Of a DNA stretch of 64,000 bases, positions 2,347-56,323 are shown piece after piece. The position numbers and the translations under genes are program-made. The first letter of the stretch is position 1, and each line of letters opens with the position of its first letter. Source of the DNA: an uncultured Desulfovibrionaceae bacterium (lineage in GTDB: Bacteria; Desulfobacterota; Desulfovibrionia; Desulfovibrionales; Desulfovibrionaceae); the NCBI GenBank assembly GCA_964368455.1, contig CAYJAZ010000009.1, positions 14,941 through 78,940 on the forward strand, given 5' to 3'. The notes under the pieces are model-generated. The model did no database searches, was not told the DNA's origin, and worked only from the letters and a program-made list of their open reading frames with translations.

Positions 2347-5300
2347 GAAGAACATCCTAATCAAAAGAAGACCAAAGTGGCTGAAATAAAAATCACAAAA
2401 AAACATATAATTTTCCTTTCTTTATGGGGTGTACTTGCTACTCTCATTCTCTACGTCTATCTCACTTTTTTACAACCTACTAAATTTACACCATTTATTC
2501 AAAAAAACGTACAAGAATACATTCCAGAACTTTCCTTTAATCACGTAGATTTCACTCTTTTCCCACGTTTAGGCGTTGAATTTACAGGCATACAATATAA
2601 AAATGAATTCAATGACTATAGTTTAGACATTGAAGCCACTGCTTTATTGGCTCAAATGTCTTGGATTTCATTATTTAAAGGCGATTTTGACATTGCTCTT
2701 GCTTCCTTTGTTCAGCCATCAATTTCGCTTGAACACAAAACAAATCAAGAACAAGGTGTAGAAGACACGCAAGTTTCTAAAAATGTCTTACCACTTTCAG
2801 CTTCAAAATTGCATGCTCTTGTGCCTACTCATCTACAAAGAACAAGATTTGAAGTTCTTGATGGCGAATTTTATTTCATTCCTTTACAAACAAATAAAGA
2901 ATATATAGATACTTATTATCTTAATGCGATAAATCTCAATCTTGATGCTTTTAAAAATTTCGACTTAGCTATCAAAGAATTTAAACTTGTACAAACCTCA
3001 AGTCCTGATAATATTGCACAAAATCATTCTTTTTCAAATCTTGCATTAAGTTTGAAAGATATAGTTCTTACACAAGAAGATCTTACTGCAATGCTCAATT
3101 TAAAAAGTGATATTTCATTTTTTGATGCAAAAGTCGTATCAAATGTCGAAAGTAAGGGAAAGATTGCTCTCAACCAAGATTTTAGCTTCAAACCTTTAGA
3201 ACAAAAATTAACTTTTCTTTCAACATTTAACGTAAAAAACCAGCAAATTCCTTCTAAAGCAGACTTTATCTTACAATACATAGACAAGAACACTTTAACT
3301 ATTAAAGACGCAAATATTAATATTGAAGAAAATAAAGTCTTCCTTTCAGCGGAGCTCACAAATCTACTTTCTGATCCAAAAGCGCATATACAAGCAACTT
3401 TCAAAGATCTTTCCATACCAAGATGGTTGAGCTATACAAGACAAGTTCCTAATTCTCTCATGAGCGAATTGAATAAGGTGGAGGGTTCTTTTTCTGCGAC
3501 ATTAGACAAAAATGCCCTTATTACAAACGATCTTAGAGCAAGCACAAACAATAAGCATATTGTCGAAGCAAAGGTAGATTATAATTTTTCTGACGGCCAT
3601 AAACTTCTTGTAGATGCCTATATTCCAAAACTTAATGTCAATCTACTCTTCCCTGTTTTAGAACACAAAACACTTCCTCTTGTAAGCTATGCCAACGAAA
3701 CTCTTGACTCTCTTCTGCATTCAAATAATCCAGACAAAGAAGTCAAATTTGACTATAATATTAAAGTAAATGCCAATGATGTCACTTTTTGGAAATATAA
3801 TTTTAGAAATATAAATCTTTCTGTAATTCCACATGAAAAAGGCGTGCAAATACCTGTAGAAATAACACATTTCTTTGATGGCTCTCTCACGTCAAAACTC
3901 ATTATTCACGATACTATTGACATAGACACAAATATTGTTGACACCAATGTAGAAGAATTATTTAAAAATATCACAAAGAACAGCCCTTTAGCCGGTATGT
4001 TCAATTCTCGTATAAAGATAAGCTTACAGCCTCAAAGCGAACTTGAAAAAATGTTTTCAAAGCCTGCATTAGACATTGAAGCAAGTTTGACTAATGGAGC
4101 TTTCAATCCTTATGATAATGCTTTTAATTTCAAAAAATTTGCTGCACATTCAAAGGTTTCTGAAATTCGATTCCCTGCTAACATTTCAGATATATACGGT
4201 TTTTTTGGCGAACATTCACTTGAACTATTAAAAGACGAACATGCTTTAAAAGTTCATATCCCAAAAACAGACTTGCTTTATAATATGCATACCGGTTTGC
4301 CTGATAGCATCTCTTCAAGCTATGCCTTAGTTGAATACGAAAATAGTTTCCCTTTACATTTTCTTACAAATGGTATGTTGAGATTTGACTTTCCTAATCA
4401 GCACATTGTTTATGATGATATAAAGGCTAGCCTTTATAACGAAAAAATCACAGCTTCAATTGACTTCACTTCCTTTACAAATCCAAATATCAAGGGTGCA
4501 GCTTCTTTCTATGCTAAAGACTTAAAAGGCTTTTTGAAGAAATATAAAATAGATCTGCCAAAATTAAGAGACGAAACTGCTCTTTCTCAAGCTGGCTTAA
4601 ATTCTACCTTTACCTATGCTGATAATCTTCTAAAACTCTCTAATCTTTCAGCAGAACTTGATAATTATTCTTTTACAGGCAGTCTAGAATACGATTTCAC
4701 AAATACAAAGCAAAGTGTTTTTGCCCTTTCTTCGCCTTTCTTTAATGCCGATCGTTATTTAGATTTTGCTAAAAAATCTAACAGTACGCCTTTTTCTTCT
4801 GACGCTCTTTTACCAATAGACTTTATTTCAAGTATAAACACTGTTGGTTCTCTTTCTTTTGACGAACTTTGGATTGTGCGAACACCTTTTTATAATGCTA
4901 ATATCCCAATGTCTTTCAACAAAGGCACTATTTCACTTACCCCAACTGCCCTTTTCCCTACTTCTGGAAGCATAGCAACAAATCTGAATATACAAACAAC
5001 AGCACATTCTTTAGACTATGCCCTTCAAGCAAAAGCAAAAGATATTGATATGCTTGCAATAACACAAGCACAAGGATTAGAAACTCTACTTGCAGGCACA
5101 GGCACTTTTAGCCTTAATGCAAAGGGAACTGCAACAAAAGAATCTGACATTTTTGAAAATATGCAAGGCGATTTTTCTTCATGGATAGAGCATGGTTTCT
5201 TTATCAATAGTACAAAATCTGTAAAAGCAACATCTTATAAAGATCCACCTGTGAAAAGTCCTTATGTTCCTAAAAATCTCAAAACCTCTTTTTCCTTATT

Positions 5301-50581: not shown

Positions 50582-51877
50582 ATGAAATACTACATACAGA
50601 ATTTTGGCTGTAAAGTAAGCCAATACGAAAGCCAAGCCATGCGTGAAGCATGGCAAAGAAAATATAATGCACAAGAAGTAGAATCGCCTGATGAAGCCGA
50701 TTTACTCTGTATTGCCTCCTGTGCAGTCACACGTGAAGGCGTCACAGATGCCAGACAACTCTGCAATAAATGGCGAAAAAACTTTCAAGACAAGCATATC
50801 ATTGTCACAGGTTGTGCCGTTGAAATAGCAAAAGAAGACTTTAGCCAAGCAAATGCCTCTATCACACAAAAAATAAGGCATATTCTCTTAGAAAAAAATC
50901 CATTAGAGCTACAAGGCTATCACGCCCACGACAAAAAATTAGAATATCCGCCCTTTGAAATACAATCTTTCAAAAGATCACGAGCTGTTGTCAAAGTGCA
51001 AGAAGGTTGTTCGCATCTCTGCTCTTATTGCATTGTTCCCTACACAAGAGGCCCTTCACGTTCAAGGCCATTAGAAAACATCCTTCTTGAAGTAGAAAGA
51101 TTACTTGAAAATGGTTTCAGAGAATTAGTCCTTTCCGGTATAAATCTCAGGCAATACAATTATAATTCTCTAGATTTTTGGGATGTATTAAACGCCCTGC
51201 AAGAAAAATTTGCTGCAAAATGGGAGAATAAAGCACGTTTTCGTCTCAGCTCTCTTGAACCAGCACAATTAAATAATAAAGGTATACAAACACTCACTGC
51301 AACAAAACTCATTGCTCCGCATCTACACCTTTCCTTACAATCTGGCTCGCAATCCGTATTAGAAAGAATGCGTAGAGAGCATTACAGTCTTGAAAGTGTG
51401 CAAAAAAATCTTGAAAAATTACAAGATAAATGGCCGCTCTTTGCATTAGGTGCTGATTTTCTCATGGGCTTTCCAGAAGAAAGTACAGATGAATTTTCAC
51501 AAACAATGGATTTTATAAAAAATATCCCACTCACCTACGCACACGTCTTTTCATTTTCCTCAAGGCCTGGCACCCTAGCCGCAAAAATGCCACAATTAGA
51601 AAAACAAGTAAAACAAGAAAGAGCAGCAAAAGTAAGAGCATTAATCGCAGAAAAACAACTCAACTTCCTTGATAAACTTCTTATTCAAAACACAAACAGC
51701 CTCTATCTTTCCTTTGATATGCACGACAATGAAGATAAGCTCTACTATGAAGGTATTGATCAATACTACAATTCATGCAAACTTGAAACAAATACAAAAT
51801 TAAACAAAGAATTACACAAAGCAAAAGCAATCAAAAGAGAAGCAAATAAGCTTATCGTTGAATTAGAGCGATTATAA
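50582..51877 (+). CDS. mtaB: MiaB-family radical SAM tRNA methylthiotransferase, MtaB-like
   Basis: N-terminal UPF0004 Cys pattern (NFGCKVSQYES ... ASCAVT ... TGCA) and rSAM motif EGCSHLCSYC. Confidence 0.75.
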   Translation: MKYYIQNFGCKVSQYESQAMREAWQRKYNAQEVESPDEADLLCIASCAVTREGVTDARQLCNKWRKNFQDKHIIVTGCAVEIAKEDFSQANASITQKIRHILLEKNPLELQGYHAHDKKLEYPPFEIQSFKRSRAVVKVQEGCSHLCSYCIVPYTRGPSRSRPLENILLEVERLLENGFRELVLSGINLRQYNYNSLDFWDVLNALQEKFAAKWENKARFRLSSLEPAQLNNKGIQTLTATKLIAPHLHLSLQSGSQSVLERMRREHYSLESVQKNLEKLQDKWPLFALGADFLMGFPEESTDEFSQTMDFIKNIPLTYAHVFSFSSRPGTLAAKMPQLEKQVKQERAAKVRALIAEKQLNFLDKLLIQNTNSLYLSFDMHDNEDKLYYEGIDQYYNSCKLETNTKLNKELHKAKAIKREANKLIVELERL

Positions 51878-51896
51878 GCCTCCTATGTCTTCGACA

Positions 51897-52184
51897 GTTT
51901 TTTTTGCCTCCGGCGGCCAAAGAGAAAGTAAAGCTGTTTTTTTTGCCTCCGGCGGCCAAAGGAAATAATTTCCTTTGGAAACCTTTATATGCAAGGTAAG
52001 CACATAAGAGATTAATTTAAATCGATTTTTAGAATCCGAAAAAGTTTTAAGCTGACGCTTAAATACTTTTTCGAGTTAAAATCTGTTTGCTAAAGATTTT
52101 TTTTATTTGTTCAATAGCTGTAATTGGAATAGCCTTGACTCGTCATTGCGAGAAGCTCACACAGTGAGCGACGTGGCAATCTAT
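51897..52184 (+). repeat. Modular intergenic repeat, copy A (forward), with a 26-bp tandem duplication of its first module
   Basis: gttttttttgcctccggcggccaaag occurs at 51897-51922 and 51936-51961. Palindrome ccaaaggaaat-a-atttcctttgg is at 51956-51978. The long hairpin is at 52037-52073. The cgtcattgcgag...gcgacgtggcaatctat module is at 52141-52184. All of these are shared with 55642-56275. Confidence 0.9.
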
Positions 52185-52376
52185 AATAAAGAAAATTTTA
52201 TTTAAAGCATTTTATGCTTGAATAATTCTAGATTCTCGCAAAGCGTGAAAAAAATTAAGTACATTAATTCAAATACATCTTTTAAAGCAAAAATTTCTTT
52301 ACTTGCAATATAAAATTTTCGTTGTTATTTAATCCTATCTACTTTTTGAGTTAAATTTTTCTAACAGGTCTTCTAC

Positions 52377-53594
52377 ATGCGATTTGATACTCTCTCACTC
52401 TTTTTTCAATCATTAATTGTATGGTTTAAAAACATACATCTACCTAAAAACATACCCTCATTAATTTCACGTTCTATCAAAGAATTATTGAAAAAAAACA
52501 ATGTAAGATATGCTGTAAAAACAGCTCTTTCCATACTTCTATCTTATTTAGTGGCACTTTTTATTTCTGATAGATACGCTTTTTGGGCGCCTATTTCTGC
52601 AATCATTGTCATGCAAATCAGCGTTGCAGCTTCCATTGAATCTAGCCTTGATAGAATATTAGGCTCTTTTTACGGTGCTGTTCTCGGCCTTATCGCCTTT
52701 TATATCACTCCACCAGAACTCTATGCCACTTCCCTCGGACTTTTCTTAGTTTCTATTCTCTGTGCCTCACTTCTTTTAATAAATCCACGCTACAGGCTTG
52801 CAGGCATTGTCGCTATCTCTGTTTTTCTCAATGAACAAGGAGACATCAAAGGCCTTGAATTTGCTTGGGTTTTCTTATTGCTTATTTGTGTTGGAATTGT
52901 TGTTTCTATGCTTGTTTCAGTCTTTTTATGGCCTATCTCAGGTGCGGAAAAACTTCGACAATCTCTCAAAAAGCAATATTTCATGTCTGCTGATCATCTT
53001 GAACATATCACTAGGTATTTTCTTAAAGAACACAGTCATTTACCACCAAGTATTCTAGACTCATTACACGATTCTATTTCTGCAAATAGAGCTGAACACA
53101 GATTAGTCAAAGAATACGAAGCAATCAATATTTCAAGTCAATACAGAGAATTAGACTTGCTTATCACAGGCTTGGAACAAATTCGTGTATATCTTTCTTC
53201 GCTTTTAGATGCATTAGATAGCGAAGCCGAAGATATTGAAAAACTTCCAATGACTGAAGAATTAATGGCACTTTCCACTTCTGCTGCTTCTGGCTTGCGC
53301 TGGATTGCCTCACATTCAGAGGGCCAGCAATTACCCGAAGTGCGTTGGTATATCGAAGCAACTTCAATTAAGCTTGCAGATCTTTTAAAAGAACACGAAT
53401 TACTCGATCTTTCAGCCGATCAATTAGCGCAAATTTTCTCTTTCTACAATGCAATGAACCATTTAGCTGAAACTGTTGCGAATCTTGAAGAACAAACAGA
53501 AATTGTCACTTCACAAAATAGAAATAAAACTCGTCGATCAAGATTAAAAACCTTCCTCAGAAGACTACACTTCCAAAAACTTTTCAAAAAATAA
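52377..53594 (+). CDS. FUSC/ArAE-family integral membrane protein (putative exporter)
   Basis: 405 aa. N-terminal multi-TM region with VKTALSILLSYLVALF...FWAPISAIIVMQ...DRILGSFYGAVLG, then a helical cytoplasmic C-terminal domain. Confidence 0.5.
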   Translation: MRFDTLSLFFQSLIVWFKNIHLPKNIPSLISRSIKELLKKNNVRYAVKTALSILLSYLVALFISDRYAFWAPISAIIVMQISVAASIESSLDRILGSFYGAVLGLIAFYITPPELYATSLGLFLVSILCASLLLINPRYRLAGIVAISVFLNEQGDIKGLEFAWVFLLLICVGIVVSMLVSVFLWPISGAEKLRQSLKKQYFMSADHLEHITRYFLKEHSHLPPSILDSLHDSISANRAEHRLVKEYEAINISSQYRELDLLITGLEQIRVYLSSLLDALDSEAEDIEKLPMTEELMALSTSAASGLRWIASHSEGQQLPEVRWYIEATSIKLADLLKEHELLDLSADQLAQIFSFYNAMNHLAETVANLEEQTEIVTSQNRNKTRRSRLKTFLRRLHFQKLFKK

Positions 53595-55641: not shown

Positions 55642-55870
55642 TTTTGCCTCCGGCGGGCAAAGGGAATAATTCCCTTTGCAAACCCTAGTATGCAAAGGGA
55701 GTGCGTAGGGGGTTAACTGAAGAAGTTAAAATTTATTTTTTTATTTGCGAAAAAGTTTTAAGGGTGAAAGACTAGCGTCTCTCACCCTTAAATACTGTTT
55801 CGCTTTAAAATAGTGGAATAGTAAGATAGCATAAAACAAGTTGCCATTTGTCACTGTGTTCCAAATGTGA
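55642..55870 (+). repeat. Modular intergenic repeat, copy L (forward)
   Basis: ttttgcctccggcgg, then palindrome gcaaagggaat-a-attccctttgc (55657-55679), tatgcaaaggg-agtgcgtaggg, the long hairpin at 55747-55803, and the catttgtcact..gttccaaatgtga module at about 55843-55870. Confidence 0.9.
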
Positions 55871-55947
55871 ATAAAGCATTAAATTCCCACCTCTAAAGCT
55901 TACTCAGCTGTTCAAAACAATAAATGTAAATAAAAAAAAGAAAAAAC

Positions 55948-56275
55948 ATAGATTGCCACGTCGCTATGCTCCTCGCAATGACGAGGCTAATATATTTCTT
56001 TCAGGACTTTCGATTTTACTACTCTTACATTGCACAAAATAATGAAATCACATTTGGAACGTAGTGACAAATGCTAACTTAATCTCAATTAGAATTAATT
56101 TACACCCATTTTAAAGCGAAACAGTATTTAATGTTTTGATGCGAAGCAACAAAACTTTAAAACTTTTTCGCAAATAAAAAAATAAAACAAAATTCCAAGC
56201 AACACCCTACGCACTCACCTTGCATATAAAGGTTTCCAAAGGAAATTATTTCCTTTGGCCGCCGGAGGCAACAAA
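55948..56275 (-). repeat. Modular intergenic repeat, copy R (reverse orientation, tail-to-tail with copy L)
   Basis: The reverse complement carries the same modules in the same order: palindrome 56236-56258, hairpin 56116-56171, catttgtcact module 56048-56077. It also has the cattgcgaggagcatagcgacgtggcaatctat module (55948-55982). Confidence 0.9.
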
Positions 56276-56285
56276 ACAATAAAAA

Positions 56286-56323
56286 CAAAAAAAGAGCCAT
56301 ACTTTCGCGTGGCTCTTTTTTTA
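56286..56323 (-). terminator. Terminator of the TRAP dctQM gene (bidirectional shape)
   Basis: agagcca-N10-tggctct flanked by an A-run and a T-run, 15 nt after the stop at 56338. Confidence 0.65.

Follow-up and report, generated by a model that had tools for sequence, protein, structure and literature searches.

What is the hairpin-rich DNA behind the mtaB-like gene of an uncultured Desulfovibrionaceae bacterium (GenBank assembly GCA_964368455.1), and how did it come to be there? The gene lies in the window analysed here, a stretch of 64,000 nucleotides of contig C9 (C9:14941–78940; a window position is the C9 position minus 14940), and positions given without a contig name refer to this window. 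A preliminary description, made from the letters of the window, had reported a series of modules at 51897–52184 (a duplicated 26-mer, a first palindrome, a tatgcaagg box, a second hairpin and a tail), all of which are found at the positions given there. The same modules had been seen after rlmN (55642–56275), where they are indeed present, as an inverted pair. We find that the DNA behind mtaB is a single, internally deleted and decayed copy, covering 51878–52248, of a non-coding unit of about 334 nt which is dispersed over the genome. The element is most likely made of two independent hairpin-repeat systems that were fused in this lineage, one similar to repetitive extragenic palindromic (REP) sequences (module 1) and the other a tail of the type associated with Ssn nucleases. 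With a probability of about 60%, we regard the family as selfish or neutral mosaic repeat DNA, akin to bacterial interspersed mosaic elements (BIMEs) and REPINs, which has spread via single-strand hairpins and recombination and is tolerated behind genes.

Copy number and organization of the repeat family

The genome (G000) comprises 65 contigs with a total of 2.74 Mb (34% G+C), or 2.64 Mb once redundancy is removed. Contigs C1 and C2 contain reverse-complement duplicates of about 105 kb (C1:138–105796 and C2:56–105761, 99.98–100% identity) that differ by a scaffold gap of 100 N, which looks like assembly redundancy; raw repeat counts are inflated by it, and it is probably the reason for the 6% “contamination” figure of the assembly. 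The repeat unit was defined by iterated nhmmer searches of the genome and contains, in this order, a T-run with a GC box, palindrome 1 followed by AAACC, TATGCAAGGTGAGTGCGTA, hairpin 2, the block GTTGCCATTTGTCACTGCGTTCCAAATGTGA and the tail. With redundancy removed, 95 loci were found on most contigs. Together they make up 38.7 kb, which is 1.5% of the genome, and they divide into 40 singles, 36 inverted pairs (421–700 nt), 5 larger composites and 14 fragments. The suggestion of a dispersed, modular and non-coding family, with modules present in some copies and absent from others, is thus borne out. The true copy number is probably higher, given that 24 of the loci are no more than 700 nt away from the end of a contig. 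The inverted pairs, about 600 nt long, are arranged tail-to-tail, with the GC boxes pointing outward and one shared tail in the centre; they begin with TTTTGCCTCCGGCGG and end with CCGCCGGAGGCAA, so that terminal inverted repeats are present. The mean pairwise identity among 109 distinct units is 74%, which indicates that the family is old, and some blocks are conserved in at least 90% of the copies.

The copies show a strong preference for gene ends, based on contexts derived from crude open reading frame (ORF) calls. Out of 121 outer (GC-box) ends, 99 face the 3' end of a gene (median distance 26 nt, 56 within 30 nt). Among intergenic contexts, convergent ones are in excess (40 observed, 9.0 expected), and tandem ones (30 observed, 54.4 expected) and divergent ones (3 observed, 9.6 expected) fall short (chi-square p = 3e-27). 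That copies might follow convergent or 3' gene ends had been raised as a possibility, and they do. Upstream of the GC box there is usually a T-run, often preceded by a pseudo-box (GTCTGCGACGC) and a second T-run, and in many copies of this genome a real terminator hairpin is located further upstream.

Anatomy of the copy behind mtaB

The mtaB-like ORF (50582–51877) has MtaB as its best NCBIfam match and passes the MiaB/RimO subfamily cut-off. The gap behind it (51878–52376) contains no ORF of at least 60 aa, as had been stated. The parts of the inserted block are as follows.

51878–51896, plus strand: degenerate extra box, GCCTCC-TAT-GTCTTCGAC, directly after the mtaB stop; a half box and a pseudo-box with a mini-stem GTC/GAC
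51897–51935, plus strand: first copy of the T-run and GC-box 26-mer GTTTTTTTTGCCTCCGGCGGCCAAAG with a 13-nt spacer; tandem duplication of the outer end
51936–51983, plus strand: module 1, consisting of T-run, GC box GCCTCCGGCGG (51945–51955), palindrome 1 (51956–51978) and AAACC; the family-wide REP-like core
51984–52036, plus strand: linker with a conserved TATGCAAGGT box (51988–51997), as defined by the consensus and per-column conservation
52037–52073, plus strand: hairpin 2, AT-rich, with conserved outer arms CGAAAAAGTTTTAAG / CTTAAATACTTTTTCG and a short 8-nt core GCTGACGC
52074–52140, plus strand: degenerate spacer, in which the consensus block GTTGCCATTTGTCACTGCGTTCCAAATGTGA (consensus positions ~172–262) is missing
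52141–52184, plus strand: tail module CGTCATTGCGAG...GGCAATCTAT, with CGTC tag, outer stem ATTGC/GCAAT, inner hairpin GCTCAC/GTGAGC and a C after the stem
52185–52248, plus strand: rest of the inserted block, including a decayed second tail start (TTCTAGATTCTCGCAAAGCG)

The element had been described as starting 20 nt after the mtaB stop. The first 26-mer does start at that distance (stop at 51877, box at 51897), but the 19 nt in between are the degenerate extra box, and the element therefore abuts the stop codon; GYCTCC-TAT and GTCTNCGAC motifs also precede the GC box at many other copies. The two 26-mers (51897–51922 and 51936–51961) are 100% identical at a spacing of 39 nt, and the end made up of T-run and GC box appears to duplicate readily in tandem. 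A pair on C38 carries a triple tandem of TTTCTTTTTGCCTCCGGCG with a 19-nt period at its outer end (~5040–5104), which parallels the 39-nt duplication at 51897–51961. Palindrome 1 is perfect over its 23 nt, the TATGCAAGG box occupies 51988–51996, and the tail reads, in order, CGTCATTGCGAG-GCTCAC/GTGAGC-CGACGTGGCAATCTAT. The nhmmer matches reflect the internal deletion, with one at C9:66879–67024 (consensus 2–171) and another at C9:67050–67124 (consensus 263–329). Folded as a single strand, the copy is more stable than shuffled sequence on both strands (z = −4.5 for plus and −4.3 for minus; 0 of 100 shuffles as good).

Structure kept through sequence variation

Palindrome 1 is always 23 nt long and occurs in 21 variants, with 1008 of 1070 stem positions being Watson-Crick pairs; at the base of its stem, every one of the 110 copies listed has either C..G or G..C, without mixtures. 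The GC box (GYCTCCGRCGG) is either GCCTCCGGCGG or GTCTCCGACGG, and its positions 2 and 8 co-vary (C2/G8 or T2/A8), which fits a predicted mini-stem of 3 bp, GYC-TCC-GRC, that is preserved in the pseudo-boxes as well. Hairpin 2, present in 106 of the 109 units, has 68 core variants of 25–26 nt, all of them self-complementary around a GC-NNN-GC tip, and a few copies, that of mtaB among them, have short cores of 6–8 nt. The cores look like homologous variants of one another, set apart by paired changes and by deletions. Variation of this kind can stem from selection on the folded strand or from hairpin-templated repair of palindromic DNA. Wobble pairs were considered as a means of identifying the functional strand and rejected: A.C outnumbers G.T by 43 to 1 on the unit strand, but these mismatches go back to a small number of variant lineages. 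Both kinds (A.C and G.T) are seen in the module-1 copies of G234, a relative which is described below.

Insertion history

Relatives were taken from a sample of 251 genomes of the family (72 genera), this genome included, i.e. 250 others. In G005 and G002, the two nearest species that keep the same downstream gene, the mtaB spacer is about 150 nt long and empty. Their intergenic regions align to the window only from ~52249 (AAAAAAATTAAGTACATTAATTCAAATACATC...), and this empty site places the boundaries of the insert at approximately 51878 and 52248. G007 and G008 have related GC-box elements at the very end of mtaB. In G007 (C80, ~1640–1720), the mtaB frame enters the GC-box element, which provides the last residues and the stop codon, and the open frame is 478 aa long, compared with 431–448 aa in other genomes. 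Behind rlmN, the contig ends after 3–180 nt in 5 of 10 congeners (G005, G002, G010, G003 and G009), which suggests that repeats are located there in those species too and break the assemblies.

Within the genome, a pair of 626 nt at C14:53225–53849 recurs at C19:12460–13085 between unrelated flanks, with 560 nt being 100% identical, which points to recent copying or gene conversion of the pair. All differences are found in the left end of about 100 nt, where pseudo-box and GC box both switch variant (GTCTCCGACGG versus GCCTCCGGCGG), so the outer end appears to change independently of the body. No target-site duplication is visible at the C14 and C19 copies or at the mtaB site, where left ends are variable and no empty site of the same species was compared.

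The tail module and its associated GIY-YIG genes

About 105 copies of the tail, the module at the inner end of the unit (CGTCATTGCGAGG…GACGTGGCAATCC), read (TCTAG)ACT-CGTC-ATTGC-GAGG-(variable hairpin)-GACGTG-GCAAT-CCATG. The exact pattern has 91 matches in this genome and 1 each in only two of the 250 other family genomes; among the genomes sampled, the tail is expanded only in this species. Two published groups of hairpins are relevant here. CGTC-tagged REPs have an unpaired CGTC, a stem opening with A-T then T-A, and a CCA tail; they lie near the 3' ends of convergent and same-direction genes and are without a dedicated transposase (Di Nocera et al. 2013, PMC3733652). SsnA, a single-domain GIY-YIG nuclease of 94 aa, binds the Neisseria NTS (CGTCATTCCCGCGMAVGCGGGAATCYRG) in its single-stranded DNA form and makes its cut just upstream; the layout is NTS-ssnA-NTS, and motifs of this kind typically flank the homologous genes of various phyla (Chenal et al. 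2025, PMC11893778).

This genome contains a comparable arrangement. Two tandem GIY-YIG ORFs of 93 aa (C1:124776–125057 and C1:125261–125542, with a period of ~485 nt), enclosed by the tail doublets of C1:124.5–125.7 kb, are each bracketed by a tail on the plus strand 25 nt upstream and a tail on the minus strand 19–22 nt downstream. The Pfam GIY-YIG score is 45.4 bits (cut-off 22.6), and the protein has 1489 homologues of about 95 aa in many phyla, of which the best listed are 54–66% identical; searches of NCBIfam and of PDB sequences gave no matches. The first Tyr, Arg, Glu and Asn are conserved in both proteins when aligned to homologues. Hairpins of the form YGTCAT...ATC flank the homologues of Sedimentibacter, Nonlabens and a metagenome contig. 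A 109-aa GIY-YIG gene is present as three identical tandem copies (period 568 nt) in Nonlabens spongiae (CP019344.1, ~2525945–2527642), where TGTCATGCTG...CAGCATC hairpins stand between the copies; the tandem organization is the same as here. Among the congeners, an Ssn homologue is absent in 9 of 10 and found in G004 alone (57% identity). The tail of G004 reads TGTC-ATTCT...AGAAT-C, compared with the stem ATTGC/GCAAT here, and this compensated change confirms the outer stem.

By sequence, the tail is a hairpin of the class formed by CGTC-tagged REPs and Ssn-related motifs (SRMs). The family had been called unrecognised in the preliminary description, which is not the case for the tail but does hold for the outer module and the composite, as neither matches anything in Rfam or in the literature searched. 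Like SRMs, the tail has a 5' CGTC tag, and a stem starting with ATT and ending with AAT that is followed at once by a C; it is oriented, has from tens to about 100 copies, and stands on both sides of a single-domain gene of ~93 aa, in the layout that is also seen around the homologues in other phyla. It differs from them in its outer stem of 5 bp around the conserved GAGG...GACGTG and a variable inner hairpin, in place of a loop of 4–5 nt, in being joined to an unrelated arm of ~250 nt in most copies, and in the Asp that both Ssn-like genes have in place of the second catalytic Tyr (see below). With the CGTC-tagged REPs (including Neisseria dRS3 and Rickettsia RPE-4/RPE-6) it shares the tag, CGTC here and TGTC in the congener, the stem opening with A-T and T-A, the CCA tail in most copies (GCAAT-CCATG), the inverted doublets, and the location between convergent and same-direction genes close to 3' ends. 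Unlike theirs, its stem has 5 bp and not 8–9 bp, and its interior is 20–35 nt long with a variable hairpin of its own, for a total of 32–45 nt, where they have a loop of 4–5 nt and a total of 20–40 bp. The mtaB copy of the tail ends in CTAT, not CCA. CGTC-tagged REPs are mostly alphaproteobacterial, whereas the host here belongs to the Desulfovibrionaceae. A third non-coding repeat of about 440 nt (C1:92131–92570), with approximately 10 full or partial copies on C1, C3, C4, C13, C15, C22 and C36, usually lies between tail doublets, so the tail hairpin appears to be common to several mosaic families.

Distribution of module 1

The pattern of module 1, GYCTCCGRCGGSCAAAGG, is found in 96 of the 251 family genomes and 32 of the 72 genera, with up to 128 copies each, while the reversed pattern used as control has no match in any of the 251. 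Congeners carry its core of ~45 nt in many copies at 90–98% identity; the arm as far as hairpin 2 is present only in G002 and G005. An exact 20-mer of module 1 occurs in more than 113 places in other named genomes and metagenome-assembled genomes (MAGs), mostly Desulfovibrio MAGs of ~60% G+C, the other carriers being MAGs labelled Selenomonadaceae, Alphaproteobacteria UBA2562 and Christensenellales (labels and binning as deposited). RlmN of this genome is 60–62% identical to that of two Desulfovibrio MAGs and 38–41% to that of the other phyla tested, according to which the carriers from other phyla are different lineages.

Module 1 is present in genomes of 34% and 66% GC and is located 10–30 nt after stop codons, with the GC box nearest to the gene. 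In G234 (66% G+C, 128 copies) most copies are single hairpins, and some of them are followed by a real terminator. Of 28 copies tested there, 20 have a same-strand open frame of 100 codons or more that ends 2–71 nt before them, and in 19 of these 20 the distance is at most 30 nt, but the count is approximate, as long open frames arise easily by chance at 66% G+C. No description of module 1 or of the composite was found in the literature searched for the box sequences and for Desulfovibrio repeats. None of the 4227 Rfam families reached its gathering score in permissive searches of the window, and in 14 module-1 loci from other genomes only tRNAs reached the threshold. The closest family, RF02937 (Clostridiales-2), resembles the minus strand of module 1 in having a hairpin with a G-rich/C-rich stem followed by GNCGNAGG. 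It differs in that a 34-nt segment of the model is missing and the match, at 24.8 bits, stays below the gathering score of 58.6; module 1 does not belong to this family.

Relation to known repeat classes and candidate enzymes

The likeness to BOX, ERIC and Correia-type elements proposed earlier turned out to be a loose analogy. Compared by description only, these elements are also non-coding, intergenic and hairpin-forming; BOX elements are modular, Correia and ERIC elements have terminal inverted repeats, and Correia elements duplicate TA. No sequence similarity to them and no Rfam match was found for the element, and no target duplication is seen here. The closest architecture is that of a REP/BIME-type mosaic. 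As in E. coli REP/BIME and in the systems formed by REPINs and REP-associated tyrosine transposases (RAYTs), module 1 is a short imperfect palindrome with about 100 copies, extragenic and at 3' ends, which forms mosaics with other motifs and inverted doublets able to form long hairpins, and which persists across related lineages. Unlike in REPIN-RAYT systems, it has no GTAG tag, being flanked by GYCTCCGRCGG and AAACC, and there is no repeat-flanked RAYT or Y1 gene in this genome and no Y1 gene in three high-copy genomes. Compared to REP/BIME, the unit of 334 nt and the pairs of ~600 nt are much longer, and the orientation of module 1 is fixed relative to the upstream gene.

The single Y1_Tnp match in the genome is an IS200-like gene of 149 aa on the 2.6-kb contig C62 (L124:1435–1884), where it adjoins a GGDEF/EAL-like gene. 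It was rejected as a RAYT/IS200 partner: it has its own terminal hairpins, which are unrelated to the repeat, and high-copy relatives are without Y1. A search for a parent insertion sequence (IS) was also negative, with no gene bracketed by inverted arms in this genome (a draft assembly) and only ordinary genes in the inspected loci of other genomes (an amidase at L012 and, judged by eye, an OsmC-like gene at L166). Ssn was likewise discarded as the partner of module 1, as five module-1-rich genomes have no homologue.

Origin and possible function

If the family is selfish or neutral repeat DNA, module 1 would be an old REP-like element common to the Desulfovibrionaceae that was joined to lineage-specific modules and a species-specific tail. 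Ssn nucleases would recognise hairpins of the tail type in single-stranded DNA and make their cut just upstream. Copies would spread and be reshuffled as DNA, by way of hairpins extruded on single strands when DNA is replicated or repaired, as well as by gene conversion or recombination among modules, with no transposase encoded by the element. At gene 3' ends, where an insertion does no harm, they would be retained, and on read-through they would add stable 3' hairpins to transcripts.

Several results weigh against this reading. No enzyme able to copy the element was found in the genome, and the assembly contains no multi-copy IS or coding repeat, as its self-megablast returned only paralogous ordinary genes and redundancy. 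Ssn enzymes are not known to mobilise repeats. The three genomes with 93–128 copies of module 1 have neither a Y1 transposase nor an Ssn homologue. Both Ssn-like copies have Asp at position 18, where the second catalytic Tyr is found in 16 of 16 aligned homologues. Considering that the Y17A mutant of the Neisseria enzyme binds without cutting (PMC11893778), present-day cleavage is doubtful, and by analogy the Ssn-like proteins may bind but not cut. The published SRM string, HGTCWYN(0-2)YYVSBRHN(0-5)WNVSBRGN(0-2)RNCYNB, has 0 matches in the genome (1–5 in shuffled genomes; the NTS control sequence matches), and the tail misses it because its stem letters and long interior do not fit the pattern. 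Neither a target-site duplication nor an exact excision boundary can be defined. Finally, a host function would fit equally well with how little module 1 varies from genomes of 34% GC to those of 66% and with its fixed sense orientation after stop codons.

Such a function is the strongest competing explanation, which we consider somewhat unlikely. According to it, the element would serve the host in the 3' untranslated region (UTR), either as RNA, by stabilising or terminating the transcript upstream or by insulating convergent genes, or as DNA bound by a conserved host protein, and dispersal would be secondary. The identity of 90–98% over ~45 nt between congeners, the same core at both extremes of base composition, the sense-oriented position 10–30 nt after stops (in G234 often upstream of a real terminator, i.e. 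inside the 3' UTR), the stems kept via compensatory changes and the lack of a mobilising enzyme in the searches all argue for it. The distribution is, however, patchy, with module 1 absent from 155 of 251 family genomes, 40 of 72 genera and 3 of 9 congeners, and in the nearest species nothing is inserted at the orthologous mtaB site. A T-run stands 5' of the GC box and hairpin, and no U-tract, the mark of an intrinsic terminator, follows the hairpins. A scan found no excess of promoter-like sites inside the elements over shuffled sequence and no terminator-like site in 51700–52450, and the pair after rlmN has one weak candidate on the reverse strand of hairpin 2; terminator-like matches are thus weak or outside the element. 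Many copies in this genome are downstream of a real terminator and may therefore be little transcribed. The commonest stem mismatch is A.C on the sense strand (43 versus 1), G.U being formed only on the antisense, and the “compensatory” changes can be gained by palindromic DNA through hairpin-templated repair without selection. A related proposal takes module 1 (GC box, 23-nt hairpin and AAACC or AATCC) as an undescribed, strand-oriented cis element, which would be kept ~10–30 nt behind stops in much of the Desulfovibrionaceae, have spread to other phyla and be read by some conserved factor other than RAYTs and Ssn nucleases. It would then form a third REP class with a partner of its own or a 3'-UTR function. 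We put it forward tentatively and regard it as unlikely; if true, the ~600-nt foldbacks of this genome would represent two hairpin systems fusing into one larger mobile unit.

The pairs could also be classical MITEs (miniature transposable elements with inverted repeats), in which case the ~600-nt pair would be an internally deleted IS with the GC-box ends as terminal inverted repeats, moved in trans by a DDE transposase that is unassembled or lost. The ends of the pairs (TTTTGCCTCCGGCGG and CCGCCGGAGGCAA) have the expected symmetry, an element of 110 nt with the same 15-nt inverted ends exists in a Selenomonadaceae MAG, and a minimal box-hairpin-box element of 57 nt is found at C3:38836. The 24 loci close to contig ends indicate that the repeats break the assembly, so that an IS could have remained unassembled. 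Against these stand the failure to find a coding segment between inverted arms here or in the inspected loci of other genomes, the lack of a multi-copy coding repeat in the assembly and of a visible target-site duplication, the predominance of single hairpins over inverted pairs in other genera, and the fixed orientation of module 1 to the upstream gene, which is unexpected for an element with symmetric ends. We consider a MITE origin improbable.

It is very improbable that the units are a family of genes for small RNAs, each transcribed on its own into a structured molecule. The strong folding and the weak Clostridiales-2 match of module 1 (24.8 bits, E = 0.0017 in a search of 721 nt) would be in agreement with it, but this match is far under the gathering score and lacks the 34-nt model segment; on the module-1 copies of the 14 other loci no Rfam family came up to its gathering score, promoter-like sites are not enriched, and units are freely truncated, duplicated and inverted. 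A local duplication confined to the mtaB and rlmN loci, although they are the only two inside the 64-kb window, is refuted by the 95 non-redundant loci and the related copies in other genomes and retains next to no probability.

The element is already known in kind, through REP/BIME mosaics, CGTC-tagged REPs and SRMs. What is apparently new is the composite family, the tail variant that escapes the published SRM pattern, the Ssn pair lacking the tyrosine, and the GC-box hairpin of the Desulfovibrionaceae, for which we have seen no description. The family accounts for ~1.5% of the genome and for many contig breaks here and in related MAGs. The Ssn/SRM pairing is extended to a gut-type, Desulfovibrio-like lineage, in an unusual form with a long motif interior, a nuclease without the catalytic tyrosine and a motif welded to another repeat. 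The GC-box hairpin just behind stops in at least 32 genera of the family, without a known partner enzyme, is a testable lead.

The inverted pair after rlmN

The second locus in the window lies between genes assigned by profile match to RlmN (before) and a TRAP permease (after), and its two arms are complementary up to 86% over 71 nt.

55642–55870, plus strand: left arm of the pair; GC box at 55646–55656, starting 16 nt past the rlmN stop
55871–56047, minus strand: non-palindromic centre; single tail module on the minus strand at 55948–55985
56048–56276, minus strand: right arm of the pair; GC box (reverse complement) at 56259–56269, adjoining the terminator at 56287–56322

At 56287–56322, adjoining the right end of the pair, the TRAP permease gene has its intrinsic terminator, a clean and bidirectional one (AAAAAAAGAGCC...GGCTCTTTTTTT).

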